Shown here: one piece after another, positions 924 through 16,807 of the stretch
How positions within the stretch are numbered: the first letter of the stretch is position 1
How the letters are laid out: each line of letters opens with the position of its first letter
DNA from: Clostridia bacterium
Lineage (GTDB): Bacteria > Bacillota > Clostridia > Oscillospirales > CAG-272
Length of the DNA: 43,939 nucleotides
Assembly: GCA_017628875.1 (NCBI GenBank)
Contig: JAGBYG010000162.1
Coordinates: forward strand, 1-43,939
Reading direction: 5' to 3'
Notes under the pieces: model-generated
What the model was told of the DNA's origin: nothing
Database searches by the model: none
The model's input: the letters and a program-made list of their open reading frames with translations, nothing else
Translations under genes and position numbers: made by a program

Positions 924-944
924 ATTATTAAGGGGAAAAATAAA

Positions 945-1385
945 ATGGAAGAAAAAGAAACTGTATGCCATGAATGTGGCACAATTATTGGAAATTGGGC
1001 GGACGTTTGCATCGAATGTGGATGTCCAAAAGACGAAGATGGCGAAAGATTATCCGAAGAAAACGTTAGAGCGGAAGCGGAAGTAAGATTCATTCGCAAC
1101 AAGGACGATGAAAATAGCAACGAATACGAAATCGTTGATATTGAATATTACGTTAACGGTACAGAGTTGGAAATCATCGCATATCTTAATAAAATTTCCG
1201 AGGGTGAAGGCCGCGAGGGAGAGGGAGATGATTTCTATTTATATATGCTTGATTCTCATAGCGGTGAAATTTCTTATGGCCCCGTTACTATGCCATATAT
1301 GGAAGTTGGTGCAACCAATGACGTATGGATTAAAGGCCGTATTGACCAAATGGGAACATACCGAATCCTTGTTGAACTTCAATAG
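945..1385 (+). CDS. Acidic hypothetical protein with an N-terminal zinc ribbon
   Basis: CHECG-x9-CIECG; AAGGGG RBS; followed by a terminator. Confidence 0.7.
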   Translation: MEEKETVCHECGTIIGNWADVCIECGCPKDEDGERLSEENVRAEAEVRFIRNKDDENSNEYEIVDIEYYVNGTELEIIAYLNKISEGEGREGEGDDFYLYMLDSHSGEISYGPVTMPYMEVGATNDVWIKGRIDQMGTYRILVELQ

Positions 1386-1421
1386 AAACAGTATTGTTAA
1401 AAGTAAAAAATAACAAAAATG

Positions 1422-1454
1422 AAAAAAGTCACGACTAAAAGTCGTGACTTTTTT
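1422..1454. terminator. Bidirectional intrinsic terminator
   Basis: AAAAAAGTCACGAC-taaaa-GTCGTGACTTTTTT perfect inverted repeat. Confidence 0.85.
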
Positions 1455-1463
1455 AGGTTTGAT

Positions 1464-1524
1464 AAAAAACAGCTCAAATCCTTGATAAATAAGGATTTGA
1501 GCTTGGCGGAGAATGCGATTTGAA
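1464..1524 (-). repeat. Degenerate tRNA-Ser 3'-end remnant with an adjacent terminator hairpin
   Basis: TGGCGGAGAAtgcGATTTGAA (1504-1524) resembles the att core; next to it is AGCTCAAATCCTT-gataaat-AAGGATTTGAGCT (1471-1503). Confidence 0.65.
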
Positions 1525-1750
1525 GCGGCTACACCGCCCACTCGCGTCGCATAGTCGGTGTTTAAATATAACAAGTGCGAACATAGTCCCACTCGAAAAT
1601 ATAGTCGTCTCGGGTGTATGCTAAAGCACACGCCCGACACTCCTTATTTTCTCCCTTCTCGTTCTCCCTTCATCTGCCACTGGCAGCGGTCGAACTCGAA
1701 GCCCTCGCGCCGCCCGTCGCTCCTACGAATTTAAATATCACAATTCAAGC

Positions 1751-1789
1751 AAAAAGAAAAAGCAGACACAAGGTCTGCTTTCTCTTTTT
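1751..1789. terminator. Terminator hairpin abutting the left att copy
   Basis: AAAGCAGAC-acaag-GTCTGCTTT with A- and T-tracts on either side. Confidence 0.75.
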
Positions 1790-1813
1790 GGCGGAGAAGG
1801 AGAGATTTGAACT
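1789..1813 (-). repeat. att site: displaced tRNA-Ser 3' end (25-bp direct repeat, left copy)
   Basis: TGGCGGAGAAGGAGAGATTTGAACT is identical to 43897-43921. Confidence 0.95.
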
Positions 1814-1868
1814 GTGTTAGGTTAATCAAAACGGTCATATTTGTCATAAAAATGGCCATTTTGGTGCC

Positions 1869-1942
1869 ATTTTGTCCTATTTTTCCTGGATTTGCTAAAA
1901 CTTTTTGATTTTGTATGGGGCGCGTATGAGGAGCGTATGGGG
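1869..1942 (+). repeat. Putative integrase arm-type sites, left end
   Basis: GTATG(G/A)GG at 1913, 1924 and 1935 (11-bp period); ATTTTGTCCTAT at 1869. Both motifs recur at the right end. Confidence 0.75.
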
Positions 1943-1992
1943 AAAATACACACAAAAAAGAAGACCATATTTGAAGATGTGGGCTTCTTTTT

Positions 1993-3213
1993 TTACATTT
2001 GCTCTTTGACAGATTTGATGTATTTATCAAAGTTGTCGGCGCTTTTGGTTACTCGGGTTTGGCTCAATCCATCGTAATAATGCCACGTGGTACTAGCCTC
2101 AGAATGTCCTAATCTCTTTTGGACGGTAGTATAATCGTCACCATTGTCAAAGGAGATGATAGCGTGATTATGACGCAATCCGTGGAAATACTCTTCGGGC
2201 TTTCCAATGGCAGCTACAACTCTTTTGTAATGTTTGTAAAGCGTGTTGTGTGATATGTTGCGTCCATACTCATCTTCAAAAACAAGTCCTGGGAAGGGTT
2301 CGTGCCACAAATCTTTAGCGATTTCTCTTTGCTGGAGTTGTTCCTCATATCTTTCTTTCAAAAGATTGATAATCTCATCTTTTACTTCGATTTTTCTCAT
2401 TTGCTTGTGCTTGACAGGACCAAATGCATATTTCAACTCTGGCTGATCGTCTTGAACTTCAACGTAGTGCATCTTCTTTTTTCTGTATAGCTGTTTTCTA
2501 ACGTGGATAATTTTCTTATCCCAGTCTATACAATCCCAGGTCAAACCGATAATTTCACCCTGTCTCATACCTGTAAATAAGCAGAACGAGATCAATTTGC
2601 TAAATCTGTCTGTCTCTGCTTCTTTAAGAAGAGCTACAACTTCATCAAATTCGAAAGGGATTATTTCTTGGTCTACCACTTTGGGAAGATGCGTGTGTGT
2701 AGCAGGATTAATTTTGATGTAATCCAAGTCTACTGCAACATTGAGAGCCTTGCGCAAAACTGCGTGTATCTCTCTAATGGTTTTTTCGGAAAGAGGTTTT
2801 CCTAACCTGGATTTCTTTGTGATCAAATGATTTGCAAATTCCTGTACCTTTTCACGAGTTAATTTGCAGAGTGGTATATCACCGAGAAATGGAATAATGT
2901 GGATACGAATGCGATCCTCATACGCCTTTCGGCCAAGAGGTGACATATGCATTGTGAATGTTTGCATATAGAAGATCAAAAACTCGCGGACAGTTTTCTT
3001 GTTGGGGGTAACATAAGTGCCATCGTTAATGGAATTCAAAACTTGAAGTTTGAATTCGATGGCATCGGCTTTTTTGTCAAAAGTCTTGCTTCCCATCTTT
3101 TGTTTGTGAGTAACGGGATCGTAAGACTTCGTAAAACGAACTTCCCACTTGCCGTTTTTGGTCTTTCTGATACTGCCTTCACCGTTTCCTGCTTTAATGC
3201 TCTTTTTAGCCAT
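1993..3213 (-). CDS. int: Tyrosine recombinase / site-specific integrase
   Basis: N-terminal GEGSI...WEVR arm domain; TGMRQGE, FHGLRH and LGHSEASTTWHYY catalytic motifs intact; RBS GAAAGGAG. Confidence 0.96.
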   Translation of the reverse strand: MAKKSIKAGNGEGSIRKTKNGKWEVRFTKSYDPVTHKQKMGSKTFDKKADAIEFKLQVLNSINDGTYVTPNKKTVREFLIFYMQTFTMHMSPLGRKAYEDRIRIHIIPFLGDIPLCKLTREKVQEFANHLITKKSRLGKPLSEKTIREIHAVLRKALNVAVDLDYIKINPATHTHLPKVVDQEIIPFEFDEVVALLKEAETDRFSKLISFCLFTGMRQGEIIGLTWDCIDWDKKIIHVRKQLYRKKKMHYVEVQDDQPELKYAFGPVKHKQMRKIEVKDEIINLLKERYEEQLQQREIAKDLWHEPFPGLVFEDEYGRNISHNTLYKHYKRVVAAIGKPEEYFHGLRHNHAIISFDNGDDYTTVQKRLGHSEASTTWHYYDGLSQTRVTKSADNFDKYIKSVKEQM

Positions 3214-3214
3214 A

Positions 3215-3424
3215 TCAAGCACTCTCCTTTCCCCAATTAAGATTGGATCTTTCGGAGATCATATCCATTGCACGTGAATTCAAAAACTGAGTTTTGAACA
3301 AGAGCGCTTCTTTTTGAGCGTAGAAAACTTTGGGGTTTGTGTTGTGAGCATTTACATAACGAACTTCCCATCTTCCGCCATCGCAGGGTTTAATGATTGC
3401 ACGGGGTGTTTTGTTTGTCATCAT
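3215..3424 (-). CDS. 69-aa stand-alone homolog of the integrase arm-binding domain
   Basis: RBS GAAAGGAG before ATG 3424; GRWEVRY...KVF...EALLFKTQFLNS aligns with Int GKWEVRF...KTF...DAIEFKLQVLNS. Confidence 0.7.
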   Translation of the reverse strand: MMTNKTPRAIIKPCDGGRWEVRYVNAHNTNPKVFYAQKEALLFKTQFLNSRAMDMISERSNLNWGKESA

Positions 3425-3425
3425 A

Positions 3426-3647
3426 TTACGCACACTCCTTTCCAAGCTTGAGATCTCCACCAAGGTTAATCCAAGAGAGAAGCTGATCTCTTTTGAGGTA
3501 AAGTCTTCCTCTGATGCCGACGGTGAGTTCGGAGTGGTCGTGAGCAATGGCATAAAAGCCGTTCTTTGTGATGCCCATTTTTTGAGCATCTTTTACTGTG
3601 ATGAGCATAGGGAGCTCGGGGTGAGTGCTGGTTTGTTTCTGTGTCAT
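3426..3647 (-). CDS. xis: Excisionase / recombination directionality factor (winged HTH)
   Basis: LPMLITVKDAQKMGITKNGFY...IRGRLYLKRDQLLSWI; upstream of int; RBS GAAAGGA. Confidence 0.8.
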   Translation of the reverse strand: MTQKQTSTHPELPMLITVKDAQKMGITKNGFYAIAHDHSELTVGIRGRLYLKRDQLLSWINLGGDLKLGKECA

Positions 3648-3780
3648 AGTTTTCTTTCCTTTCATTATATAGAATTGTTTTAATTTCTTTTTTAGGAAAC
3701 ATATGCTAAGAAACAAAAAAGCATAGTTATCCTTAAAAAAGAAAACTATGCTATAGAGTTAACTCTCTAACCCTATTAAT

Positions 3781-3809
3781 ATTGTACTCGAAAAAATGAC
3801 CAATGTCAA
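3781..3809 (-). promoter_or_regulatory. SigA-type promoter for the xis-int operon
   Basis: Minus strand TTGACA-17 bp-TACAAT. Confidence 0.7.
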
Positions 3810-3941
3810 TAGGTTTTGTCCGGTTTTCAAATTTTTTAAATAAAATTTTTAGGTTTTTTTAGAAAAATATGAATAATATCAAAGCTTTTTTAAACAATAA
3901 ATTGATGCAAAAACTTATCTTTTTTGTAATTATACATATAT

Positions 3942-3972
3942 AAAAAATCCCTCAAATCGTTTGATTTGAGGG
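3942..3972 (-). terminator. Terminator of the abiE operon
   Basis: CCCTCAAATC-gttt-GATTTGAGGG with a minus-strand U-tract. Confidence 0.8.
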
Positions 3973-3979
3973 TATATTG

Positions 3980-4843
3980 TTATACTGCACTTTCAAACAG
4001 TGCTATTTCTTTTTCTAAAATGTTGCAACTTGTATGCAAGACGTTTTTCCAAGCAAGGTCGCCCACATAATAGCTATATGATTTATAATTTTTCCAGTTG
4101 CTTTCGAGGTAATCACTTTGCTTGATATCTTTAAGAATGTCATCAAGATTATCAAAAAGATGTAATGTTCCTCTTTTACGAGCCACATTTAGGATTGCCT
4201 GCTCCAAAATCTTGAGATTAATCTCTGATTGCATCTCTGTCCACAAAATATGTATATCATAAAAATCTCTCATACGAGTGTTAAGTGTGGAACGCGCAAC
4301 TATAGTTTCAAGCTTTTCTGCGAGTACGGTTTCAAGATTGTATGACCAAATGTCAAGCTTTTCATCATCGAACATCATTTTGTAAGAAAATTCGATGGCA
4401 GCGGGTGTGATTTCATCACCAGTTGAAACATCTACCTTGATTGTGTCTCTAAGCTTTTCAAGAGTTACTTCCAATGTAAAACGAATACCGGCATAGTCGT
4501 GTTCTTCCATAATGTCTTCAATCTTTGTGATGCTGAAGGTAAGACCGTCGTCAAGATCCGTCTTAGCAATTTCTTTGATGATGGAAGAAGCAACTTCCTT
4601 TGTTAATGAAAGAGAACGAACGGTGGTGTCAATATCCATAGTCGCTCTTGCTTCAACACCTACAAGCGCAGAAACGAGCATACCGCCTTTGAGAATGAAG
4701 TTGTTTTTGTATTCCGATTGAGCAATTCTTGCAAGAAATCTCTCCATCATATATTTTCTGATAAGCATCTGAGCTTTTGTGCTATCGTTTCCTGACAAAT
4801 TAGAAATCTTATCTTTTAACTGTCTTGATGTTTTGATAATCAT
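3980..4843 (-). CDS. abiEii: AbiEii-family nucleotidyltransferase toxin (type IV TA / abortive infection)
   Basis: FILKGG...RATMDID, AEKLE and RMRDFYDI motifs. Confidence 0.92.
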   Translation of the reverse strand: MIIKTSRQLKDKISNLSGNDSTKAQMLIRKYMMERFLARIAQSEYKNNFILKGGMLVSALVGVEARATMDIDTTVRSLSLTKEVASSIIKEIAKTDLDDGLTFSITKIEDIMEEHDYAGIRFTLEVTLEKLRDTIKVDVSTGDEITPAAIEFSYKMMFDDEKLDIWSYNLETVLAEKLETIVARSTLNTRMRDFYDIHILWTEMQSEINLKILEQAILNVARKRGTLHLFDNLDDILKDIKQSDYLESNWKNYKSYSYYVGDLAWKNVLHTSCNILEKEIALFESAV

Positions 4844-5433
4844 AACAATACCTCCATATATTGACGGATTTCCGCTTCAATGCCAAATTCTTTTGCATAC
4901 GTCATTAGTCGGGGTAAATTTTTGGAAGAACTTTTCGCATATTCCTTCATAGCGTAAGCAAACATTTGAGGATCTTTTTTGTCCTTTACGCGCACAAGGT
5001 CGCAAATTGTACGCTCCATATCGTAAACGGGAACTTCATTTCCGTAAGTTGTTTTTGCGGTGCTTTTGCCTAAGTCTAACCATTCTTCTTTGACTTGATA
5101 TACAGAAATGCCCCTGCTACGCAAACGAGAAGCGTTGTATTTTCTTGGAACTGTAAGAAAGATTGTACCTGGCTCGCGCTCGGTCAATCCGTGCAACATA
5201 AGAGCAGTATCAAAAGAGCATACTGCTTTTTCGCTTTTTAATGTTGCAATGTATAGCTCGTCCGTCCATATATCGGGAGACTTATATAAACCGTGAGCAA
5301 CCTTTTCAAAATTGTTATTTTTTAGATATTCTTGGATATAAACCCTTGAAATTCCAAGCGCTTGCGCTTCGGAAATCAATACATATCCATTACATTTTTC
5401 AATCAATTCAATTAATCTATCGGTCTTTGTCAT
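4840..5433 (-). CDS. abiEi: AbiEi-family antitoxin / transcriptional regulator
   Basis: N-terminal wHTH (KVAHGLY), TALMLHGLT, YDMERTICD; overlaps the abiEii start. Confidence 0.9.
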   Translation of the reverse strand: MTKTDRLIELIEKCNGYVLISEAQALGISRVYIQEYLKNNNFEKVAHGLYKSPDIWTDELYIATLKSEKAVCSFDTALMLHGLTEREPGTIFLTVPRKYNASRLRSRGISVYQVKEEWLDLGKSTAKTTYGNEVPVYDMERTICDLVRVKDKKDPQMFAYAMKEYAKSSSKNLPRLMTYAKEFGIEAEIRQYMEVLL

Positions 5434-5451
5434 AATTACACCTACCTTTTA

Positions 5452-5488
5452 TGCTTACAATTATATCATAAGTAAGCACGAATGTAAA
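5452..5488 (-). promoter_or_regulatory. abiE promoter with an overlapping inverted-repeat operator
   Basis: Minus strand TTTACA-17-TATAAT with an extended TG; TGCTTAC-N13-GTAAGCA (5452-5478) straddles the -10 box. Confidence 0.7.
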
Positions 5489-5601
5489 GTATTTTTTGAA
5501 ATTTTATTAAATATTTTATTTTTTTGCAAAAATTGAAGAATTTTGTTGAAAAGATGGGTAATATATTATGTCGTGCAAATAAAATCTTATTACAATTATT
5601 C

Positions 5602-5666
5602 AATTTTATCATTTTTGCAAAAATGATAAAATTAAACTTGACAATTGATTATAATAAGGGTATAAT
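5602..5666 (+). promoter_or_regulatory. Consensus SigA promoter of the fic-hsd operon, preceded by a perfect 32-bp palindrome
   Basis: TTGACA (5638)-17 bp-TATAAT (5661); AATTTTATCATTTTTGCAAAAATGATAAAATT at 5602-5633. Confidence 0.85.
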
Positions 5667-5698
5667 ATATGTAGAAAAATATATTTTTAGAGGTTATT

Positions 5699-6760
5699 AT
5701 GAGAAATTACGCTTATAACAACAAGTGGAAAAAGCTTTTGACGCCGGAAATTGTTTTGCTGTTGACACAAATTCACGAGTATAAAGGTGAGCAAGCCTTA
5801 TTTGTGGAGACTAAAGCTGATACACTTACACAGCTTGTTGAAGTTGCAAAGATACAGAGTACAGAGGCATCAAACAAAATCGAAGGTATTTACACTTCCG
5901 ACGAGCGTTTGAAAAGCATTGTTGCAAACAAAACTATGCCCCGAACAAGAAACGAGCAGGAAATTGCCGGTTATCGTGATGTACTTGCTACTATTCACGA
6001 AAACTACACATATATCCCCGTTAAGCCATCTATCATTTTGCAGCTCCATCGCGATTTGTATAAATTTAGTGGCAAATCCATTGGTGGTAATTACAAGGTA
6101 TCTGAAAATGTGATTGCCGAAGAAGATGAAGCGGGTAATAAACGTATTCGTTTTCAGCCTGTAGTATCTTGGGAAACACCGGGAGCAATAGATACTATAT
6201 GTGCAGAATTTGATGAAATGATTTCACAAACTGATGTAGATCCTCTTTTAATCATTCCAATGTTTGTGTTGGATTTTCTTTGTATTCACCCCTTTAACGA
6301 CGGAAACGGTAGAATGAGCCGTTTGCTTACGTTGTTGCTTTTGTATCGTGCAGGATATACCGTTGGAAAATATATCAGTATTGAAAAATTGATTGAGCAA
6401 ACCAAAGAAACATATTATGAAGCATTGCAAAATAGTTCTGCGAATTGGCACGAGGGTGAAAACGATTATATTCCTTTCGTTCAATATACACTTGGTGTAG
6501 TGCTTGCGGCTTACCGCGAATTTTCAGTAAGAATGAAATCAATGGCTACCAATAATATGTCAAAGCCCGAGCGCATCAAAGAACTTATAAAAAACATACT
6601 CGGAACGATTACAAAAACAGAAATTATGAAGGAATGTCCCGATATAAGCCAAATTACTGTGCAGAGAGCACTTAATGATTTGGTTACAAGCGGAGAAATT
6701 TTGAAAATTGGCGGCGGACGTTATACCGCATATATGTGGAACCACAATAAGGAGAATTAA
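5699..6760 (+). CDS. Fic-family AMPylase with a C-terminal winged HTH
   Basis: HPFNDGNGRMSR Fic motif; N-terminal SNKIEG inhibitory-type motif; C-terminal ISQITVQRALNDLV...GGGRYTAY. Confidence 0.92.
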   Translation: MRNYAYNNKWKKLLTPEIVLLLTQIHEYKGEQALFVETKADTLTQLVEVAKIQSTEASNKIEGIYTSDERLKSIVANKTMPRTRNEQEIAGYRDVLATIHENYTYIPVKPSIILQLHRDLYKFSGKSIGGNYKVSENVIAEEDEAGNKRIRFQPVVSWETPGAIDTICAEFDEMISQTDVDPLLIIPMFVLDFLCIHPFNDGNGRMSRLLTLLLLYRAGYTVGKYISIEKLIEQTKETYYEALQNSSANWHEGENDYIPFVQYTLGVVLAAYREFSVRMKSMATNNMSKPERIKELIKNILGTITKTEIMKECPDISQITVQRALNDLVTSGEILKIGGGRYTAYMWNHNKEN

Positions 6761-6762
6761 TT

Positions 6763-8265
6763 ATGATTACAGGTGAACTTAAAAATAGAATTGACGGACT
6801 TTGGGACGTATTTGCGGCGGGGGGAATTGTAAATCCCATTAGTGTAATTGAGCAAATTACATATCTTATGTTTATTCACGAGCTTGACGAAACGGATAAC
6901 CTTCGTGCAAAGGAAGCTGTTATGCTCGGACTTCCTCATAAGAGTATTTTTGCAGATAGAGTTAAGGTTGGCGACCGCGAGATTGACGGTCAGCAGCTCA
7001 AGTGGTCGGTGTTCCACGATTTTCCTGCAGGAAAGATGTATTCAACCGTGCAGGAGTGGGTTTTCCCGTTTATTAAGAATCTTCACGATGATAAGGATAG
7101 CGCATATTCCAAATATATGGACGATGCGATTTTCAAAATTCCCACACCCTTGCTTCTTGATAAAATAGTAACCATACTTGACGATATTTATGACAAAATG
7201 TCACAGATAAAGGATACGGATATCCGTGGCGACGTTTATGAATATTTGCTCTCTAAAATTGCGCAGTCGGGACTTAACGGTCAGTTCCGTACTCCTCGAC
7301 ACATCATTCGTATGATGGTCGAGCTTATGGACCCCAAGGCGGACGAGGTTATTTGTGACCCCGCGTGTGGTACTTCGGGATTTCTTGTTGCGGCAGGGGA
7401 TTACTTGAATGAAAAGCGCAAGGAAGAAATCTTCTTCAATAGACAAAAGAAGGCACACTATATGAACGGAATGTTCCACGGCTACGATATGGATAGAACA
7501 ATGCTCCGTATCGGTGCGATGAATATGATGACGCACGGTGTGGACAACCCCTATATCGAATACCGTGATAGCTTGTCCGATCAGAATACGGATAAGGAGA
7601 AATACTCACTTATACTTGCAAACCCACCTTTCAAGGGAAGTCTTGACTACGATACAGTTTCTGCAGACTTGCTTAAGGTTTGCAAAACCAAAAAGACCGA
7701 GCTTTTGTTTCTTGCATTGATGCTTCGTATGCTTCGCGTGGGCGGAAGATGTGCGGTTATCGTTCCCGATGGCGTGCTTTTCGGTTCATCAACTGCACAC
7801 AAGGCAATTCGCAAGGCTATCGTTGATGACAATAGACTTGAAGCGGTTATTTCTATGCCCTCAGGCGTGTTCAAGCCCTATGCGGGAGTTTCAACAGGAA
7901 TTCTTATTTTCACAAAGACAGGACACGGTGGAACTGATAATGTTTGGTTCTATGATATGCAAGCGGACGGATTTAGCTTGGACGATAAGCGCACCGAGGT
8001 AAAGGAAAATGACATTCCTGATATTATAGCGCGTTTCCATAATCGTGATGGCGAAATCGACCGCGCACGCACCGAAAAGAGCTTTTTCGTTCCAAAATCC
8101 GAGATAGTTGGCAACGATTATGACCTTTCAATAAATAAGTATAAAAAGACTGAATATAAGCCCGTGGAGTATGCTCCCACAAAGGAGATTTTGGCTGAAA
8201 TCAACGAACTTGAAGCACAGATCCAGCAAGGACTCAAAGAGTTGGAGGGGATGTTGAATGGATAG
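6763..8265 (+). CDS. hsdM: Type I R-M methyltransferase subunit
   Basis: GQFRTPRHI, DPACGTSGFL and NPPF motifs. Confidence 0.96.
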   Translation: MITGELKNRIDGLWDVFAAGGIVNPISVIEQITYLMFIHELDETDNLRAKEAVMLGLPHKSIFADRVKVGDREIDGQQLKWSVFHDFPAGKMYSTVQEWVFPFIKNLHDDKDSAYSKYMDDAIFKIPTPLLLDKIVTILDDIYDKMSQIKDTDIRGDVYEYLLSKIAQSGLNGQFRTPRHIIRMMVELMDPKADEVICDPACGTSGFLVAAGDYLNEKRKEEIFFNRQKKAHYMNGMFHGYDMDRTMLRIGAMNMMTHGVDNPYIEYRDSLSDQNTDKEKYSLILANPPFKGSLDYDTVSADLLKVCKTKKTELLFLALMLRMLRVGGRCAVIVPDGVLFGSSTAHKAIRKAIVDDNRLEAVISMPSGVFKPYAGVSTGILIFTKTGHGGTDNVWFYDMQADGFSLDDKRTEVKENDIPDIIARFHNRDGEIDRARTEKSFFVPKSEIVGNDYDLSINKYKKTEYKPVEYAPTKEILAEINELEAQIQQGLKELEGMLNG

Positions 8266-8857
8266 AAAAGATAAAAAACGTACTGCGAGAGCCAGAAGAA
8301 TAAGAAACTCTGGAGAATATGTGGATGTTAGTTTTACTATTAAGCAAATGGAAAAAATGATTGATGAAAAGCTCCAATCAATGAAGTTTTTTATTCCTTT
8401 TGTGTTAACTATCGTTACTTCATTGCTTGCTTATTTATTTACAACAACCTCAAATGCTTTTGATGATTATATATACATAATAGTAGCGTATCTTTTGCTG
8501 TGTTTGGGTTCAATTTTGCGTGCATATAAGCCATCAAACAGATATATAGGAAAAGAAAGCTGGTTTAAATTTGAGAAAAAACTAAAAAGAAATTTGGAAT
8601 TTTATCCAGATATTCAACCTTGGAATATGGAAAGCTATATTAATTTAAGTGATACTGAGTTTATTACTCGTTTGGAAAAGTTTGTAAGTAGAAAGCTATA
8701 TCAAGATGAATTGATGTCAGCTCAATTTCTTAAACAAAAAATAAATGAGTATAGGTACAAAAAACGCAACATTTCCATATCTTACACAGTGATAATTGTG
8801 GGAGCATTGGCATTAGCTTTGCTTTTTGCTATTGAATATGTTTGGAGCGTAATGTAG
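8258..8857 (+). CDS. Hypothetical membrane protein (about 3 TM segments) between hsdM and hsdS
   Basis: 199-aa ORF overlapping the hsdM stop; two N-proximal and one C-terminal hydrophobic segments; AT-rich. Confidence 0.75.
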   Translation: MDRKDKKRTARARRIRNSGEYVDVSFTIKQMEKMIDEKLQSMKFFIPFVLTIVTSLLAYLFTTTSNAFDDYIYIIVAYLLLCLGSILRAYKPSNRYIGKESWFKFEKKLKRNLEFYPDIQPWNMESYINLSDTEFITRLEKFVSRKLYQDELMSAQFLKQKINEYRYKKRNISISYTVIIVGALALALLFAIEYVWSVM

Positions 8858-8865
8858 AGGTGAAT

Positions 8866-9972
8866 ATGGCAAGATTAGGTGATTATATAGAACAAATTCG
8901 GGGAGTATCATACAAACCAGAAGATGTTTGTTCATCAACGGATATAGATGCTGTAGCAATTCTTCGTGCTAATAATATTCAGGATGATGAATTAAATTTT
9001 GATGATTTAGTTTATGTTAGGAAAAGCAAAGTTCACGAGAAGCAATATATCCAAAAAGGGGATATCGTTGTTTGTGCATCGAGTGGAAGCAAAAACTTGG
9101 TTGGAAAAGCAGCTGTAGCTAAAGAGAATATGCAGATTTCCTTTGGAGCATTTTGTAAAGTTGTACGTCCTACGGGACTTTTACCAGGTTATGTGGGTCA
9201 TTTCTTTCAAAGTCCTAAATATAGAAGCACAATTTCCGATTTATCTGGCGGTGCGAATATAAATAATATTCGAAATGAACATATTGATGAGTTGGATATT
9301 GTAATTGTTTCCGAAGAAGAACAAGAAAAAATTATAAACGAACTTGACGCAATAAGCAACTTGATTTCCCTCCGCAAACAGCAACTTGCAAAATTGGACG
9401 AGCTTGTAAAATCCCGATTTGTCGAGATGTTTGGGGATTATAGAATTAACAACAAAGGATTTAATTGTAAAAAGGGTAGTGAGTTGTTTAAGTTTTCTTC
9501 AGGTAAGTTTTTGCCCGAAGAGAAAAGGCTTGAAAGTGGTATTCCTGTATATGGTGGAAATGGAATTGCTTGGTATACAGAAGAAGCTCTTATAGACTTT
9601 TCCACCATTATTATCGGTCGTGTTGGCGCTCAATGTGGTAACATTCATGCGGTAACTACTCCAGTTTGGATTACTGATAATGCTATCTATATTAAAGAGC
9701 AGAAGACAAAGGCATATACATTAGAGTTTTTGACTGAACTTATGCGAATGATGAATTTCTATCAGTATGCTGATTTTTCTGGACAACCGAAAATCACGCA
9801 GAAACCTTTGGAAACATTAGAGTATATTATCCCTCCAATTGAACTTCAAAAAGAATACACCGCCTTCGTCGAACAAATCGACAAATCGAAATTTGAAATT
9901 CAAAAGAGCTTAAATCAGCTCGAAATACTAAAAAAAGCATTAATGCAAAAATATTTTGGGGAAGGAGTATAA
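8866..9972 (+). CDS. hsdS: Type I R-M specificity subunit
   Basis: Two TRDs separated by LDELVKSRFVEMFGD; C-terminus LKKALMQKYFG; GAGGTG RBS before ATG 8866. Confidence 0.93.
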   Translation: MARLGDYIEQIRGVSYKPEDVCSSTDIDAVAILRANNIQDDELNFDDLVYVRKSKVHEKQYIQKGDIVVCASSGSKNLVGKAAVAKENMQISFGAFCKVVRPTGLLPGYVGHFFQSPKYRSTISDLSGGANINNIRNEHIDELDIVIVSEEEQEKIINELDAISNLISLRKQQLAKLDELVKSRFVEMFGDYRINNKGFNCKKGSELFKFSSGKFLPEEKRLESGIPVYGGNGIAWYTEEALIDFSTIIIGRVGAQCGNIHAVTTPVWITDNAIYIKEQKTKAYTLEFLTELMRMMNFYQYADFSGQPKITQKPLETLEYIIPPIELQKEYTAFVEQIDKSKFEIQKSLNQLEILKKALMQKYFGEGV

Positions 9973-9975
9973 AAA

Positions 9976-10902
9976 ATGAGGTCTATTATTAAATTATCTA
10001 TCTTTGTGTTCTTTTCTATATTTGCAGCAGCTTTTCTATTTTTGCACTTATTTATGAATATTTTTATTCAGTTTGAATTAATATCAGATGAAATGGCGGT
10101 TTATATTTCCTTAATAATATCAATAATTTTAGCAATTGTTTCTGTAATAGTTTTTTTACTGGATATCAAAGCAGAAAAGAAAACCAAAATAGGACATTGG
10201 ATGCAAATTTATACCTCTAAGATTGTATTAGGATATATATTCTTGATTTTGTTTTTCGCATCGTTTAAATCAGAAGTGTTTTTAACTAAAGAGGTGGCAA
10301 GAGAATTGCTATCATTGGAATGGGTTATTTTGGGGATATCAATAGCTATATTTTTAATTTGGAATGTTAAGGTTATAGATTATTTGGAGAAGAAAAAGCC
10401 AACAAAACCTCAAGATTGTTTGCCAACCCAAAAAATGATTTATATACAAGCAAAAGAAAATTTTTACTTTGATTGTACTATGTTGCTAAAAAATATATAC
10501 TTATTGATTGCAAATATGATGATTGTTTGTGCTGCTACAGCGGCTGTATATTTATCATCAAAAGGAATGAACTTATTCACTCAAACTATATTAGTTTTTG
10601 GATTGTTTTTGTCTACTAACACTATTATTGGATTAATTTTTGACATATTGAAAATGTTCAGTGAAAAAAAGAATGAAATGTTAAAAGAAGCGAAGACCAC
10701 AATTTCTGATGTGGAACTTCAAAACGCAATACTTAAAGATGCAGATGAACTTCTCTTGATAGCAGAAAAAATACAGAATTCTCAAAGTATTGATGAAACA
10801 CAAAGAGCATTACTGATATCTGAATTAATTATAAACTTTAAAACCAAATACAATGATGAATCGAATGATAAAGACTTAATTCACAGGGATAACGAAAATT
10901 AA
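9976..10902 (+). CDS. Hypothetical multi-pass membrane protein (about 6 TM segments)
   Basis: 308-aa ORF with GAAGGAG RBS and several hydrophobic segments; very AT-rich. Confidence 0.75.
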   Translation: MRSIIKLSIFVFFSIFAAAFLFLHLFMNIFIQFELISDEMAVYISLIISIILAIVSVIVFLLDIKAEKKTKIGHWMQIYTSKIVLGYIFLILFFASFKSEVFLTKEVARELLSLEWVILGISIAIFLIWNVKVIDYLEKKKPTKPQDCLPTQKMIYIQAKENFYFDCTMLLKNIYLLIANMMIVCAATAAVYLSSKGMNLFTQTILVFGLFLSTNTIIGLIFDILKMFSEKKNEMLKEAKTTISDVELQNAILKDADELLLIAEKIQNSQSIDETQRALLISELIINFKTKYNDESNDKDLIHRDNEN

Positions 10903-10910
10903 TTTTATCG

Positions 10911-10948
10911 CTAAAAAACATTAACACAAAAATATTTTGGGAAAAGGA
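10911..10948 (+). repeat. Degenerate intergenic copy of the hsdS 3' end
   Basis: CTAAAAAACATTAACACAAAAATATTTTGGGAAAAGGA vs hsdS 9928-9966 CTAAAAAAAGCATTAATGCAAAAATATTTTGGGGAAGGA; 15-bp identical core. Confidence 0.8.
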
Positions 10949-10956
10949 AAATTATT

Positions 10957-11328
10957 ATGGATAGTTTAATTGATATAAAATCAAGCCTTTCGGATATGTT
11001 TGAAGAAATCGACACACGAAATTATTATTTGGCAGATTGGAAATATGAAAAAATCAAAGAAGAAATAGAGCAATTTCAAACCAATCTTTCTGATGAAATG
11101 GACGTAGGTGTAGCATTAGCATCTTTTGGGACAAATATGATAATGCAAGTTATTGATATAGAATATCAAAATCCAGATTTGCTATATTTTCACGGTTATA
11201 TAAATGGTAATCGTGCCGAATTAATTCAACATGTGTCGCAACTTAATTTTGTCTTGATGGCAATAAAAAAAGATGATCCTAAACGTCCTGCAAGAAGAAT
11301 TGGATTTATCACCGATGATGAAGTATAA
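10957..11328 (+). CDS. DUF6173-like protein
   Basis: LASFG...YQNPDLLYFHG...LIQHVSQLNFVL...RRIGF pattern, recognised from memory of this family. Confidence 0.75.
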   Translation: MDSLIDIKSSLSDMFEEIDTRNYYLADWKYEKIKEEIEQFQTNLSDEMDVGVALASFGTNMIMQVIDIEYQNPDLLYFHGYINGNRAELIQHVSQLNFVLMAIKKDDPKRPARRIGFITDDEV

Positions 11329-11381
11329 TGGCTTTAGTTAGCTGGATTTCAACACTATTTTGGATGGAAAGGTAAAAACAA

Positions 11382-12620
11382 ATGAAAAAGAGAAAAATAG
11401 CTAAAAAATCTCTATATAAGTTAAAAAGAATGATAAAAAAGCGTCATAATAGAAGACGATTTTCAAAATTACAGAGAGTGATATTTCAATGTGTTTTGTT
11501 TTTGGGTTGGGCTACATTTATTAACTACTTGGTTTCTAATACGGCACCTTTTCTTGAGCAATATGTACCCACTGAGAATGAAAGTTGGGCAGTCGCCTTG
11601 ATTGCATTACCAGTAGCATTTTTAGGAATTTGGCTATCCATTTATTTGCCTTGTTTGACAAAATATAACAGTTGTTTTGCAAATAAGACATTGAATTCTA
11701 TATACAGTAAAACATTACATTGGTTTGATTTTCAATCTTTTTTTGTGCTTAGATTTTCATTTGATTTTCTATTATGGTCAGTTGCTTTCTTTGGATTAAT
11801 GTATACAAAAATGATAGCATATTCTTTTGTTATGGCGATTGATTTGCTATATCTAATTTGTTTTACTGTTTGGAAATATAAGCAACGCCCTTGTAACATT
11901 TATATGAGTAATATTATGAAATCTTATTTTCAGTCTATATCTAAATATTCAAGTCAACAGTTAGAAAATATTAATAAGTTAATCAATGAAGATAAACTTG
12001 ATGAGGCGCAAAAGGAAGAAAAATATATTCATTTTTCTTTTTGGCAAGAGATAGACGAATTAATGTTATCTATCATTACTGACAAAAATAATAATGAAGA
12101 AAAAGATGCTTTCATATGCATTTTTTCCGAGTTGCTCAAACTTCCTTTTCAAGAAGCCAACGGACTGATTATTGACAACTATATTAACCGAGCTGCGGTT
12201 ATATTCGAGCATTCTATAGATGTTGGAGACTATTTATATGCTAAAAAAATATCGGATTTGGTATTTGAAGCTTGGTATAATTATCTTGAAAAGATATGTA
12301 ATTATTTAGAGGAATATATTAAACATTCCCAAAATATACAAGAAAATTATAAGTATTTATATTTGAATGAATTGGAAGAATATGTGTGCGTTGAGACTGA
12401 GATAGGGTGTCAATTTAATGTTATATATAAAATTTTTAAGTTACATAATAGTAGTATATTGACGCTTATAAAAAACTCAAAGAATAATGTTATTACAAGT
12501 GAATATATTAGCAATTGGCACACCGAAGAAGCATTTTTGTGTTTATGTGCCTTGCGCGAAAAACAGTTGGACAAAATTAATGATGCTCTAAAATCTAATA
12601 TAAGAGAGGTATTGAAATGA
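11382..12620 (+). CDS. Hypothetical protein with about 4 N-terminal TM segments and a helical C-terminal domain
   Basis: 412-aa AT-rich ORF whose stop overlaps the hsdR start (ATGA). Confidence 0.75.
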   Translation: MKKRKIAKKSLYKLKRMIKKRHNRRRFSKLQRVIFQCVLFLGWATFINYLVSNTAPFLEQYVPTENESWAVALIALPVAFLGIWLSIYLPCLTKYNSCFANKTLNSIYSKTLHWFDFQSFFVLRFSFDFLLWSVAFFGLMYTKMIAYSFVMAIDLLYLICFTVWKYKQRPCNIYMSNIMKSYFQSISKYSSQQLENINKLINEDKLDEAQKEEKYIHFSFWQEIDELMLSIITDKNNNEEKDAFICIFSELLKLPFQEANGLIIDNYINRAAVIFEHSIDVGDYLYAKKISDLVFEAWYNYLEKICNYLEEYIKHSQNIQENYKYLYLNELEEYVCVETEIGCQFNVIYKIFKLHNSSILTLIKNSKNNVITSEYISNWHTEEAFLCLCALREKQLDKINDALKSNIREVLK

Positions 12621-15600
12621 CCAACTTCGATTTCTTAGAAAAGAACCCCGATTTTGACGCGTTTAGTGACGTGGCGATATCGGCGGAGAAATTATTACAT
12701 ATAGACATTGATGCCTGTGTTATAAACTGTCGCAGGGCGATGGAGTTTGCGATCAAGTGGATGTATTCCGTTGACCGTGATCTCGTTATGCCTTATCAGG
12801 ACAACCTTGTTTCACTTATGAACGAGGACAGCTTCAGGCATTTGATTGGCAACGATATTTGGCGACGTATTGAGTACATTCGCAAGCTTGGTAACAATGC
12901 GGCGCACGGTGGCAAAAAGATTACGCGCGAGCAAGCAGAACTGTGTATTGAAAACCTTTTTGTGTTCCTTGATTGTCTTGCGTGCTACTATTCTGCAGAC
13001 TACGAGGAGCAAGGGTTTGACAAGTCTTTGCTTGAGCTTACAGTTGAAGAAGCGGTTTCGTTTGTTCCCGATGTTGATATTGATATCAATCAGCTTATAG
13101 AAGAAAACAAGGCGCTCAAAATGGAGCTCACCGCCCGCCGTGCCGAACAACAACAGACATATGTGCCGAAGCCACTTGATCTTTCTGAATACAAAACGAG
13201 AAAGATTTATATTGACGTTATGCTTCAAGATGCGGGCTGGAGTGAGGGCAAGGACTGGATAAACGAGGTTGAGCTCTACGGAATGCCCAACAAGAGTGAG
13301 GTGGGATATGCCGATTATGTTCTCTATGGTGACGATGGCAAGCCCCTTGCGCTGATTGAGGCAAAGCGTACTTGCGTTGACGTTTCCAAGGGCAGACAGC
13401 AGGCAAAGCTATATGCCGATCTTTTGGAGCAGAAATACGGTCGCAGGCCGATAATCTTCCTCTCCAACGGCTTTGACACGCACATTTGGGACGACAAACA
13501 TTATCCCGAGCGCAAGGTAGCGGCCATTTATTCAAAGCGCGATCTTGAAAAGCTTTTCAATCTTCACACTATGCGCACAAGCCTTAAAAACGTGATGGTG
13601 GACAAGCACATTGCGGGACGTTATTATCAAGAGGGAGCAATCAAGGCGATTTGTGAGGCGTTTGACAAGAAAAATCGCAGAAAAGCACTTCTTGTTATGG
13701 CAACCGGTTCGGGTAAAACGAGAACCGTTATTGCTCTTTGCAAGGTGTTACTTGATCACAGTTGGGTAAAGAATATTTTGTTCCTTGCCGACCGAAATTC
13801 ACTTGTTACACAGGCAAAGCGTAGCTTTGTCAATATGTTGCCCGATCTCTCGGTTACTAACCTTTGCGAAGATAAGGATAACTTTGATGCGCGCTGCGTA
13901 TTTTCTACCTATCAAACAATGATGAATTGCATTGATACAATCAAAGATGAGAACGAAAGAAAGCTTTTTACCGTTGGGCACTTTGACCTTGTTATCGTTG
14001 ATGAAGCGCACCGTTCAATTTATAACAAATATAAGGATATTTTCAATTATTTCGATGCTCCGTTGGTAGGTTTAACAGCTACACCCAAGGACGAGATTGA
14101 CAAGAATACTTATGAGATATTTGAGCTTGAAAACGGTGTTCCTACCTATGGTTACGAGCTTGCTCAAGCAGTTACTGACGGATTTCTTGTTGATTTTGTA
14201 TCCGTTGAAAGCAAGCTGAAATTTATTGAGCAAGGAATTGTATATGATGACCTTTCCGAAACGGATAAAGAAGCATATGAAAATACATTTGAGGACGAAA
14301 ACGGAGATTTGCCCGAAAGTATTGCTTCATCTGCAATTAACGAGTGGGTATTTAATGAAGATACTATTCGTCAAGTGCTTCATATTCTTATGAGTGACGG
14401 TTTGCGCGTGGATTACGGTGAAAAGCTTGGTAAAACCATTATTTTTGCTAAAAATCACGAGCACGCGGAGAAAATTCACGAGATATTTGGCAAGGAATAT
14501 CCTCATTTGCCCGGTTATACAAAGGTAATCGACAACTATATGACCTATGCGCAAAGTGCGATTGACGAATTTTCAAATCCCACGAAAATGCCTCAAATTG
14601 CAATTTCCGTTGATATGCTTGACACAGGTATTGACGTGCCCGAGGTTCTTAATCTTGTTTTCTTTAAGAAGGTTATGAGTAAGGCAAAGTTTTGGCAGAT
14701 GATAGGCCGTGGAACTCGTCGTTGTGACGGACTTATGGACGGTAAGGATAAGGATAAATTCTATATCTTTGATTTTTGCGGCAACTTCGAATTTTTCCGT
14801 ATGAACAACGGACGTCCTACAGCAAACTTGATTGCGTTGCAAGGAGCTATATTCAAATTGAAGGCGCAAATTGCATATAAATTGCAGGATCTTGTATATC
14901 AAATTCCCGATTTGATTGATTTCCGTAAATCTTTGGTAGATGATATGGTGCGCAAGGTTAAGGAGCTAAATAAAGAAAATTTTGCTGTTCGTCAGCATTT
15001 GCGTTACGTCGAGAAGTATTCAAATGAAGAAAATTATAATGTTCTTACATATGAGGATACTCTTTTGATGTCTCAAGAACTTGCCCCTCTGATTACTCCT
15101 GATGAGGACGAGGCGTCAGCTGTACGATTTGATGCCTTGATGTATGGAATTGAGCTTGCATATCTTGCGGGTAAAAAATATTCTCGCGCTCGTACCGACT
15201 TGTACAAAAAGGTTAGTGGAATTGCAAGCGTAGCGAACATTCCCGAGATTATGGCCAAATCCGAACTTATTAATAAAATTTTACACACGGATTATATTGA
15301 TAATGCCGGTATTAACGAATTTGAATATATCCGTGAAAATCTTCGTGATTTGGTGAAATACATTCCTAAAAGACGCATAAAATATATCACTAATTTCGAT
15401 GAGGAAATTTTGAACGTTGAATGGAACGATTCCGAATTGGAGAATGACGATCTCAAAAACTATAAAGCTAAAGCGGAATATTACATTCGTCAACATCAAG
15501 ATGAATACGTTATTGCTAAACTTAGAAAGAATATTCCTCTGAATGAAGATGATATTAAGACACTTGAAAATATCTTGTGGAGTGAAGTCGGAAGCAAAAA

Positions 15601-15913
15601 GGAATATGAAGCTGAATATGGCCAAAAGCCTCTCGGTGAGCTTGTCCGAGAAATCGTTGGTCTTGATATGGCGGCAGCAAAAGAAGCCTTTGCAGAATAT
15701 TTGAACAGTGTAAATCTTGATGCAAATCAAATTTATTTTGTAAACCAAATTATAGAATATATAGTTCACAATGGTATTTTAAAGGACTTTACAGTTCTTC
15801 AAGAGCCGCCATTTACTGATAAAGGTAGTATTGTTGAAATATTCACCGATGTTTCTGTGTGGTTCGGTTTACGAAAAGTAATTGACCAAATTAATAGAAA
15901 TGCTGCGGCATAA
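12617..15913 (+). CDS. hsdR: Type I R-M restriction subunit (EcoAI/EcoEI-like architecture)
   Basis: ADYVL...IEAKR nuclease motif; MATGSGKT, DEAHRS, TATP and QMIGRGTR helicase motifs. Confidence 0.96.
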   Translation: MTNFDFLEKNPDFDAFSDVAISAEKLLHIDIDACVINCRRAMEFAIKWMYSVDRDLVMPYQDNLVSLMNEDSFRHLIGNDIWRRIEYIRKLGNNAAHGGKKITREQAELCIENLFVFLDCLACYYSADYEEQGFDKSLLELTVEEAVSFVPDVDIDINQLIEENKALKMELTARRAEQQQTYVPKPLDLSEYKTRKIYIDVMLQDAGWSEGKDWINEVELYGMPNKSEVGYADYVLYGDDGKPLALIEAKRTCVDVSKGRQQAKLYADLLEQKYGRRPIIFLSNGFDTHIWDDKHYPERKVAAIYSKRDLEKLFNLHTMRTSLKNVMVDKHIAGRYYQEGAIKAICEAFDKKNRRKALLVMATGSGKTRTVIALCKVLLDHSWVKNILFLADRNSLVTQAKRSFVNMLPDLSVTNLCEDKDNFDARCVFSTYQTMMNCIDTIKDENERKLFTVGHFDLVIVDEAHRSIYNKYKDIFNYFDAPLVGLTATPKDEIDKNTYEIFELENGVPTYGYELAQAVTDGFLVDFVSVESKLKFIEQGIVYDDLSETDKEAYENTFEDENGDLPESIASSAINEWVFNEDTIRQVLHILMSDGLRVDYGEKLGKTIIFAKNHEHAEKIHEIFGKEYPHLPGYTKVIDNYMTYAQSAIDEFSNPTKMPQIAISVDMLDTGIDVPEVLNLVFFKKVMSKAKFWQMIGRGTRRCDGLMDGKDKDKFYIFDFCGNFEFFRMNNGRPTANLIALQGAIFKLKAQIAYKLQDLVYQIPDLIDFRKSLVDDMVRKVKELNKENFAVRQHLRYVEKYSNEENYNVLTYEDTLLMSQELAPLITPDEDEASAVRFDALMYGIELAYLAGKKYSRARTDLYKKVSGIASVANIPEIMAKSELINKILHTDYIDNAGINEFEYIRENLRDLVKYIPKRRIKYITNFDEEILNVEWNDSELENDDLKNYKAKAEYYIRQHQDEYVIAKLRKNIPLNEDDIKTLENILWSEVGSKKEYEAEYGQKPLGELVREIVGLDMAAAKEAFAEYLNSVNLDANQIYFVNQIIEYIVHNGILKDFTVLQEPPFTDKGSIVEIFTDVSVWFGLRKVIDQINRNAAA

Positions 15914-15945: not shown

Positions 15946-16048
15946 GCATTATTAACTAAAAACCTTGTATAGAAAAACGAGTTTATATTTTCATCTTTCA
16001 TAATTATAACAACGGCGATGTGCCGAAATTTTTATGAGAGGTGTTTAT

Positions 16049-16807
16049 ATGAGCTTTTTTATTATTCCGGGAGATATTTTTTCTTATGATTTGAAACCAA
16101 ATGAGATTGCGGTTTTTTCGTTTTTGTGTTCGTGCGCAGACAATAAGACTTTTGATTGTTTTCCAAGCGTTAAGAAGATTGCAAAAGCTTGCAATATGGG
16201 GCAATCTACCGTGAGGGCGGTAATTCACACCTTACAAGAAAAGGGTTTAATCAAAATCAAGTCTCAGTACAAGCCTATACCTGATAGCGACAAGCGCAGA
16301 CAAACGTCCAATCTATATCACGTATCGTTGCTTGAGGAGTGTCGCAAAGAGGAACGAGAAATGAGACAATTTTACAAATCTATGATGAGGACGGCACATA
16401 GGAAAGAGGGGGTGCCTCCAGGAAATAGAGACCAATTAACTAAACCTAATATAACTACGACCCGCATCGAAAACAAGCCTTCTGGTTCCCAAAAGTCTTG
16501 TTCTGATGCATCTATTTCTTCAAGCGAAACAGATTTTGCAATGCTTAGAGATACGTGTATTCAAGAACTTACCTACTATGGTGAAGAGCTGTCCTGTTGT
16601 GGTTGGATTGTTCGAGAGGCTTTGAACATTATATGGAACGATCTTGTATTTGATAGTGATAACCCCACTGTTCAAAGGAAGTTGATACTAAAACATCTGA
16701 ATGCTAAACTCGTGGTCAGGGTTTTGAACGGATTTGAAATAGATGGCGCCTATGATGTCACGCCGATGTCGCTATGTGGACCGTTGTACGAGGTGCTGGT
16801 TCGTTGA
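16049..16807 (+). CDS. HTH_36-type protein, possible replication initiator
   Basis: CFPSVKKIAKACNMGQSTVRAVIHTLQEKGLI...QTSNLY winged helix followed by a low-complexity linker. Confidence 0.7.
   Translation: MSFFIIPGDIFSYDLKPNEIAVFSFLCSCADNKTFDCFPSVKKIAKACNMGQSTVRAVIHTLQEKGLIKIKSQYKPIPDSDKRRQTSNLYHVSLLEECRKEEREMRQFYKSMMRTAHRKEGVPPGNRDQLTKPNITTTRIENKPSGSQKSCSDASISSSETDFAMLRDTCIQELTYYGEELSCCGWIVREALNIIWNDLVFDSDNPTVQRKLILKHLNAKLVVRVLNGFEIDGAYDVTPMSLCGPLYEVLVR

Follow-up and report, generated by a model that had tools for sequence, protein, structure and literature searches.

The operon and its repeats

The DNA considered here, called the window throughout, is a stretch of 43,939 nucleotides (nt) of contig JAGBYG010000162.1 from a Clostridia bacterium. 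It contains a type I restriction-modification (R-M) operon in which the last ~38 nt of the hsdS gene (9928-9966) recur at 10911-10948, between the two genes that follow hsdS, and a shorter and eroded copy stands at 11347-11367, ahead of the third. By its gene content (HsdM, HsdS and HsdR) the locus is a type I R-M operon, with predicted methylation and restriction activity. Its co-oriented gene row spans 5699-15913 on the forward strand and reads Fic, hsdM, slot 1, hsdS, slot 2, hsdR, the slots holding four non-R-M genes (o199, o308, a DUF6173 gene and o412) that all lie on this same strand.

The operon opens with a SoFic-like gene for a Fic-domain protein (5699-6760; Pfam Fic 6e-13, PADLOC SoFic 1e-36), ahead of which a putative promoter matches a sigma-70-like consensus at 12/12 positions (5638-5666; pattern match only). 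It continues with hsdM (6763-8265; Pfam N6_Mtase 3.8e-66 and HsdM_N) and, in slot 1 between hsdM and hsdS, with o199 (8258-8857), a membrane protein of 199 amino acids (aa) as judged from its hydrophobic segments. The following hsdS (8842-9972) encodes two target-recognition domains, each represented by a stretch of Pfam Methylase_S, and has two conserved blocks in common with related loci, a central one at 9360-9440 and a C-terminal one at 9825-9960. The conserved 3' block of the gene (9825-9966), recognizable by blastn blocks that end at ~9895-9980 in the loci with such a match and by a spike of metagenome depth in four runs, is called the left handle below, and its last part (9928-9966) is copy 1 of the repeat. 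In nearly all relatives the stop codon comes right after ...QKYFG; the window hsdS has lost this canonical stop and adds three residues (EGV; 9958-9972), ending with a TAA 3 nt before the ATG of o308.

Slot 2 begins with o308 (9976-10902; 308 aa, several hydrophobic segments by hydropathy). Copy 2 (10911-10948) lies 8 nt past the o308 stop and 8 nt before the DUF6173 gene (10957-11328; Pfam DUF6173 4e-16), and carries an AAGGA resembling a ribosome binding site (RBS). Copy 3 (11347-11367, with its core at 11350-11363) is followed by an AAAGG RBS and then by o412 (11382-12620; 412 aa, N-terminal hydrophobic segments). The last gene, hsdR (12617-15913; Pfam ResIII 1.4e-39, HSDR_N, Helicase_C and EcoEI_R_C), has the conserved start MTNFDFL, and its first ~45 nt are called the right handle. 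A terminator-like hairpin, again a pattern match only, lies 3' of hsdR (16013-16025). A promoter scan by pattern matching found best sites of 9/12 inside the cargo, which is the level of shuffled sequence; the slot 2 genes may be transcribed together with the operon.

Do the copies of the hsdS tail exceed what an AT-rich interval would produce by chance? The top direct repeat in 8000-13000 pairs 9932-9963 with 10913-10944 (28/32 identical), and within it lies the 15-mer CAAAAATATTTTGGG, whose only exact occurrences in the genome (1.8 Mb) are 9946-9960 and 10927-10941, with one 1-mismatch match elsewhere. When the last 45 nt of hsdS were compared without gaps with 9973-12616, copy 2 reached a score of 22; 1000 dinucleotide shuffles gave a mean of 10.7 (standard deviation 1.2) and a maximum of 17.5, none of them reaching 22, and control 45-mers from the body of hsdS (n=70) scored at most 11.5. 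Copy 2 is far beyond chance. The core of copy 3, CAACACTATTTTGG, which reads QHYFG, agrees with the window hsdS tail at 12/14 positions, a weak match to that tail. A position-specific scoring matrix (PSSM) of 21 nt, built from the hsdS tails of 51 other loci with the window left out, placed its top two forward-strand positions in the 2644-nt interval at 10924 (12.9 bits) and 11347 (10.6 bits), followed by a runner-up of 2.9 bits and a best minus-strand position of -3.9. In 5000 random Markov-1 intervals 12.9 bits were reached in 0.8% and 10.6 bits in 1.9%. Because of this rank and these rates, copy 3 is probably real but eroded, moderately beyond chance. Moreover, it agrees at 16/17 positions with the hsdS-tail remnants of a related locus, L010, with which it also has the following RBS-like stretch in common. 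The three copies described in an earlier note on this DNA, made from the letters alone, are thus all in place, and their significance holds against shuffled as well as random sequence (0/1000 shuffles for copy 2, PSSM p ~0.02 for copy 3).

The next open reading frame (ORF) starts 13 nt past the end of the tail match in copy 2 and 15 nt past it in copy 3. Copy 2 matches the resident tail (score 47) and foreign tails (49) equally well, and its donor can therefore not be named. The palindrome AAAATATTTT within the repeat consists of the codons K-Y-F, and the three copies fold no better than shuffled sequence (z = 0.06, -0.37 and 0.68); as a site for a recombinase the palindrome was accordingly rejected.

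Related operons vary between fixed edges

A search with HsdM yielded at least 591 relatives, of which the best 80 were kept (L004-L083; HsdM identity 74-91%), mostly metagenome-assembled genomes (MAGs) of gut Clostridia, among which the operon family, as identified by homology, is common. Both an hsdM and an hsdR start are present in 59 operons (58 of the 80 fetched loci and the window). A SoFic-like Fic gene lies directly 5' of hsdM in most of the 80 loci (identity 53-85%) and is apparently a constant member of the operon family. Irrespective of the recognition domains, HsdS nearly always ends in ...LMQKYFG followed by the stop. The gap from the last detected hsdS-like ORF to hsdR ranges from -7 to 4430 nt in the 59 operons. 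In 58 loci 221 ORFs were called in the entire span from hsdM to hsdR, which takes in both slots, and a Pfam run with the 133 non-hsdS ORFs of at least 75 aa found a diverse and often defence-type content: AbiH, Abi_alpha, SieB, RiboL-PSP HEPN, TIR, CAP12-TIR, DUF4062, DUF2806, PIN_8, OLD-like ATPase, DUF559 and HipA_C; many of the 133 are without a Pfam family.

The edges of this variation are sharp. In blastn comparisons of the window operon with the 80 loci the upstream homology covers Fic and hsdM to ~8256-8270 and the central hsdS block at ~9360-9440; the 3' hsdS block follows at ~9825-9960, with the latest high-scoring segment ending at 9980. Homology resumes at the start of hsdR, at 12615-12618 in 31 loci and nowhere earlier than 12588, and none of the 80 loci matches anywhere in 9981-12587. 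The earlier note had proposed such an alignment of hsdS-hsdR intervals, expecting variable gene number and identity with breakpoints at the motif, and this is what the 80 loci exhibit. In 24/51 loci the hsdS stop overlaps with, or is directly followed by, an RBS-like GGTGA or AGGAG, and the ATG of the first cargo gene is usually close behind, in different cargo families alike, so the conserved left flank reaches the translation-initiation region of the first cargo gene.

The second variable slot, between hsdM and hsdS, measures -57 to 1981 nt across the loci. A search for hsdM-tail remnants in this slot gave weak matches only (best E = 0.07, in L028) and no convincing remnant.

Six of the relatives (L047, L049, L050, L053, L056 and L078) are of a shufflon type, with a tyrosine recombinase of the Phage_integrase family and extra hsdS segments in slot 2. 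All six have an LFDSLMQxYFG tail; the tail of the window is of the type LKKALMQKYFG. Another relative, L062, has two hsdM copies of this operon family in one stretch (535-11494), at 535-2022 and 10001-11494, an arrangement that could allow out-of-register recombination.

As to the cargo of the window itself, o199 alone of the four proteins matches in PADLOC, weakly, as a 2TM effector (7e-6), and its only homologue among the related loci is in L007 (55%). The o308, DUF6173 and o412 proteins have no match in PADLOC and, except for DUF6173 itself, none in Pfam. A homologue of o308 with 31% identity occupies slot 2 of L031; no relatives of o308 were found in genome_contigs or metagenome_contigs, it was present in 0/400 other genomes sampled from its order, and an Atlas search gave no usable match. 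For o412 there were no relatives in genome_contigs, and the Atlas matches were confined to unnamed clusters and to helical-repeat look-alikes below TM 0.5. Plasmid records, searched for distant similarity to 8200-12700, contained no match. The three slot 2 proteins may have a role in defence; the corresponding slot in the relatives carries known Abi, TIR and HEPN genes.

Remnants of hsdS and hsdR in other operons

When the 59 operons were scanned with the PSSM at a cut-off of at least 10 bits, 54 of them had a first match in the hsdM-hsdR span, which in L020 and L039 is a chance match with the true hsdS end coming later. Downstream of hsdS, 14 extra forward-strand matches were found in 10 operons (~95 kb of interval), and for 11/14 the next ORF starts 10-31 nt further on. 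Outside the hsdM-hsdR span, 874 kb contained two forward-strand matches, the tail of the second operon in L062 and an AT-rich, chance-like one; on the minus strand there were also two, both AT-rich and chance-like. As a supplement, nhmmer with a 63-nt tail profile added remnants in L065 (two), L076 and L084 (two). At least 12 other loci thus have extra hsdS-tail remnants, with few exceptions in the hsdS-hsdR interval and on the same strand. Aligned to the resident tail they are 14 to ~80 nt long and 67-97% identical, and they carry stops and frameshifts. Their 5' ends vary, and nearly all alignments end no more than a few nt from the former stop. In L053 the remnant sits just before the integrase of the shufflon.

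The earlier note saw similarity fall with distance from hsdS and inferred polar growth. The fall is borne out for the window, where copy 2 is 86% identical to the tail over 36 nt and copy 3 agrees in 12/14 over 14 nt, and the order of decay is likewise polar in L065 and L084; as a strict rule it breaks down in L007, whose proximal remnant has decayed further than the distal one, and in L010, with two equal remnants.

In three loci a fragment of the 5' end of hsdR lies upstream of an hsdS-tail remnant. In L010 this is the case twice, both remnants being fused directly to the first 29 nt of hsdR (the end of the RBS, the ATG and seven codons), with joins that fall in a TTTTGAAAAA microhomology common to both parents. 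The remnant in L012 is preceded, at a distance of ~5 nt, by 47 nt from the 5' coding region of hsdR; in L084 the distance is ~37 nt and the copied hsdR head measures 147 nt (43 codons). These junctions of hsdR head and hsdS tail point to the joining of two operon copies and not to capture at one site. The second junction in L010 (L010:8272-8324) forms an intact mini-ORF of 17 codons (MTNFDFLKKSLKQQYFG) behind the hsdR RBS; at the first junction a 1-nt insertion breaks the mini-ORF. L024 has a duplicate of 134 nt, comprising the end of a DUF2806 gene and the hsdR head (13614-13747 vs 15226-15359), without a tail remnant. It flanks ~1.5 kb with a minus-strand ORF of 339 aa that has no Pfam family, an arrangement suggestive of an insertion in the region of the hsdR head.

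The DUF6173 cargo can be followed through several loci. Homologues that are 72-74% identical are present in four other genomes (L084-L087), with L084, L085 and L087 being clearly type I operons. In L085 the stop of a complete hsdS lies 12 nt ahead of the gene; a 49-nt remnant precedes the gene in L084 and a decayed one in L086. Since the gene stands behind an intact hsdS or a remnant elsewhere too, the DUF6173 cargo travels with the hsdS tail.

Variants in gut metagenomes

Logan contigs of four gut-metagenome runs were mapped onto 8800-12900. A contig of 3811 nt in X5 (depth 22.7) matches 9931-10941 with 15 differences, continues with 2630 letters unlike the window and then matches 12617-12786. 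Its divergence starts right after ...TTTTGGG, the 3' end of copy 2 at 10941, and stops at the first base of hsdR at 12617. The same o308 and the same copy 2 therefore precede a different cargo in this contig, which suggests that the remnant can serve as an arm for further exchange. Because the cargo of the X5 variant switches exactly at 10941 and 12617, the hsdS 3' end, together with the RBS at its stop in 24 of 51 loci, behaves as a recombination handle, and this idea of the earlier note is supported.

In addition, the summed depth spikes at 9348-9484, 9759-10032 and 12636-12900 in 4/4 runs, to ~3 to 20x that of the flanking cargo, and the handles are therefore common to many co-resident sequences or operons. 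A contig in X1 covers 10472-11758 with 0 differences and even depth and spans copies 2 and 3; X1 may be the sample from which the window originates. In X4 (depth ~4) the DUF6173 gene and part of o412 are covered and o308 is not, and in X3 and X4 contigs break near 10939-10992 and 11361. Neither the X4 coverage nor these breaks are used as evidence here.

The operon is located in a small island next to a glutamine synthetase gene, on the side of the 3' end of that gene. On the minus strand the island also encodes a tyrosine integrase (1993-3222) and an AbiEii/AbiEi toxin-antitoxin pair (3980-5433), and its further content includes an HTH_36 gene (16034-16807). Genes of sugar metabolism come after the island, from ~18.9 kb.

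Origin of the repeats

What could have produced the repeats, their distribution, the breakpoints and the junctions between hsdR heads and hsdS tails, all of which can be read directly in these loci? We consider it likely, with a probability of roughly 70%, that the copies are scars of recombination that joined the hsdS-hsdR intervals of different operons, and that they are still usable as homology arms. Slot 2, from the hsdS stop to the hsdR start, would be a cargo bay for small defence-type genes, flanked by two conserved handles, the hsdS 3' block with an RBS that often overlaps the stop and the first codons of hsdR. As these handles are common to many co-resident operons, the cargo would be replaceable by homologous recombination. 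Occasionally two copies of the operon would recombine out of register, such that the hsdR 5' end of one copy, or the DNA just past its cargo gene, is joined to the hsdS 3' end of the other. Alternatively, an excised circle carrying an hsdS tail and, further on, an hsdR head could re-insert, with the same product. Either event would leave two cargo intervals in tandem, with a truncated hsdS tail ahead of the downstream cargo. In the window copy 2 would be the scar preceding the DUF6173 gene and copy 3 the scar preceding o412, with o308 lying between hsdS and copy 2. The scars would decay and, as long as they are recognizable, act as homology arms for more swaps. We infer both the pathway, which may be RecA-type or microhomology-mediated recombination, and the order of events in the window.

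Several points weigh against this explanation. The operons with more than one cargo ORF, 27 in number, have 48 internal cargo junctions, and a remnant is present at only 10 of these; stacks without one may be multi-gene units, may have lost their scar or may have another origin. Handles of 20-60 nt are short for recombination of the RecA type. At the window's own junctions, upstream of copies 2 and 3, no fragment of hsdR is detectable, and the out-of-register model is therefore carried over from L010, L012 and L084. Unequal crossover and re-insertion of a circle are indistinguishable from the sequence. The X5 variant is a single contig, and the junction of o308 with the DUF6173 gene is bridged by one contig, in X1. 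Finally, nearly all loci are metagenome-assembled contigs, because of which a strain chimera at the shared motif remains a caveat.

How do other explanations fare with the same observations? The earlier note favored integron-like growth, in which a site-specific recombinase adds promoterless cassettes at the hsdS 3' end with polarity. The same-strand and putatively promoterless genes of the window, each behind a repeat and an RBS, would fit this, as would the X5 breakpoint exactly at the end of the motif and the tyrosine recombinase encoded 2.5 kb upstream in the island. However, neither the operon of the window nor the remnant loci outside the shufflon group contain a recombinase; the remnants have 5' boundaries that vary by many nucleotides and the copies no hairpin potential; 38 of the 48 internal junctions lack the repeat; and neither the hsdR fragments at junctions nor the reversed or equal order of decay in L007 and L010 would be expected from cassette capture. 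We therefore abandon the proposal of integron-like growth and regard it as very improbable. As a fallback the earlier note had offered scars of deleted hsdS alleles, that is, extra alleles or half-genes that once stood in slot 2 in the manner of a shufflon and left their 3' ends behind. The six loci with an integrase and extra hsdS segments in slot 2 illustrate such a state, and the L053 remnant lies just before such an integrase. Yet outside the integrase-carrying loci tblastn finds no separate second hsdS-like segment in slot 2, the window has another tail type than the shufflon loci, the remnants abut the RBS of the cargo just as the intact hsdS does in L085 ahead of DUF6173, and from the hsdR heads beside hsdS-tail remnants it follows that two entire operon ends have been put together. 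A purely local origin is thus unlikely, albeit less so than integron-like growth. The fallback probably comes close to the truth in seeing scars of a lost hsdS, and departs from it in that the lost gene would have belonged to another copy of the operon and not to a local array of alleles.

Could the motif instead be kept by selection for expression, for example as a translation-initiation context or a coupling signal? The surviving part is always the 3' portion adjoining the RBS, the RBS overlaps the hsdS stop in many loci, and the second remnant of L010 is an intact mini-ORF. A selected element should, however, hardly display the stops, frameshifts and wide range of length and identity found among the remnants; most cargo junctions do without it, no structure is predicted for it, and the conservation of intact tails is explained by the HsdS C-terminus. 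We give this idea as little credence as integron-like growth. Least credible of all is an artefact, be it an AT-rich match by chance or a chimera formed when the assembly linked strains through the shared motif. The window and most related loci are indeed metagenome-assembled, the contigs of X3 and X4 break near motif copies, and AT-rich chance matches to the PSSM exist; on the other hand, no shuffle reached the score of copy 2, the X1 contig crosses both junctions without a difference, and the same architecture recurs in at least 12 independent assemblies. Since the copies have diverged and are not identical, they cannot have been created by assembly.

Relation to known systems and implications

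Defense genes embedded in type I R-M, BREX, DISARM and Hma loci have been described (Payne et al., 2024, bioRxiv 10.1101/2024.01.29.577857), and TgvAB is embedded in a type I R-M operon of Vibrio cholerae (PMC11411939). As in the embedded systems that these sources present, the window has non-R-M genes on the same strand between type I core genes, with a diverse and mostly uncharacterised cargo. In their text on the subject, these accounts describe embedding and use it for the discovery of defence systems, whereas the locus of the window adds scars and breakpoints that reveal how cargo enters. The words recombination, hsdS, remnant, exchange and hotspot are absent from the main text of Payne et al. 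(2024), supplements aside. Neither hsdS-tail scars nor a mechanism of embedding turned up in a full-text literature search, with preprint supplements outside its scope. Embedding as such is already established; the hsdS-tail scars appear to be undescribed.

Four other kinds of system invite comparison. Integron arrays resemble the window in having a row of genes on the same strand, an intergenic repeat and variable content, and the window may also have in common with them one upstream promoter (a pattern match only) for genes that would themselves be promoterless. Unlike in integrons, no recombinase is encoded in 5699-15913, the nearest Phage_integrase gene lying beyond the toxin-antitoxin pair on the minus strand; the repeats of the window are fragments of a protein-coding gene that differ at their 5' ends and do not fold like attC sites, and the junctions in related loci include pieces of the downstream core gene hsdR. 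Accessory-gene hotspots such as defence islands and capsule loci exchange their content by homologous recombination in conserved flanking genes. The window has in common with them the conserved flanks, the variable middle and the breakpoints at the edges of the flanks, and differs in that both flanks belong to one operon, being ~135 nt at the end of one gene and ~45 nt at the start of the following gene, and in that truncated copies of a flank have been carried into the array. The R-M-linked ORFs, or rlo genes, of Campylobacter jejuni, reportedly described by Miller and colleagues in Microbiology in 2005, are likewise variable ORFs placed between the hsd genes of type I loci that are conserved in other respects; they come from another organism and another operon family. 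The rlo work is cited for a gene between hsdR and hsdS in the account of TgvAB (PMC11411939). Phase-variable hsdS shufflons or epigenetic invertons, in the features that PMC7672463 describes, also use repeated conserved hsdS segments within a type I locus as recombination substrates. Shufflons, however, change specificity by means of an in-locus invertase and extra hsdS halves; in the window the operon has one hsdS only and encodes no recombinase, and the genes set apart by its repeats are unrelated cargo.

Embedded genes in R-M, BREX and similar operons are now used to find new immune systems. Their route of entry is left open in those parts of Payne et al. (2024) and PMC11411939 that deal with embedding, and the scars offer a concrete and testable one, in which cargo would enter or be exchanged via the handles at the hsdS stop and the hsdR start and stacks would result from out-of-register joins. 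The route predicts new cargo immediately 3' of any hsdS-tail motif, and within multi-gene intervals a remnant would be a sequence signature that delimits independently acquired modules. A further-reaching idea, which we put forward tentatively and hold to be possible rather than probable, is that hsdS tail and hsdR head constitute a recombinase-free cassette system by which the type I operons of gut Firmicutes share, swap and stack defence genes. If this were true, truncated tails would stay active as arms and any block of cargo would be exchangeable independently. The operons would then amount to a homology-driven 'defence integron without an integrase', which would explain the embedding of defence genes in immune operons generally.

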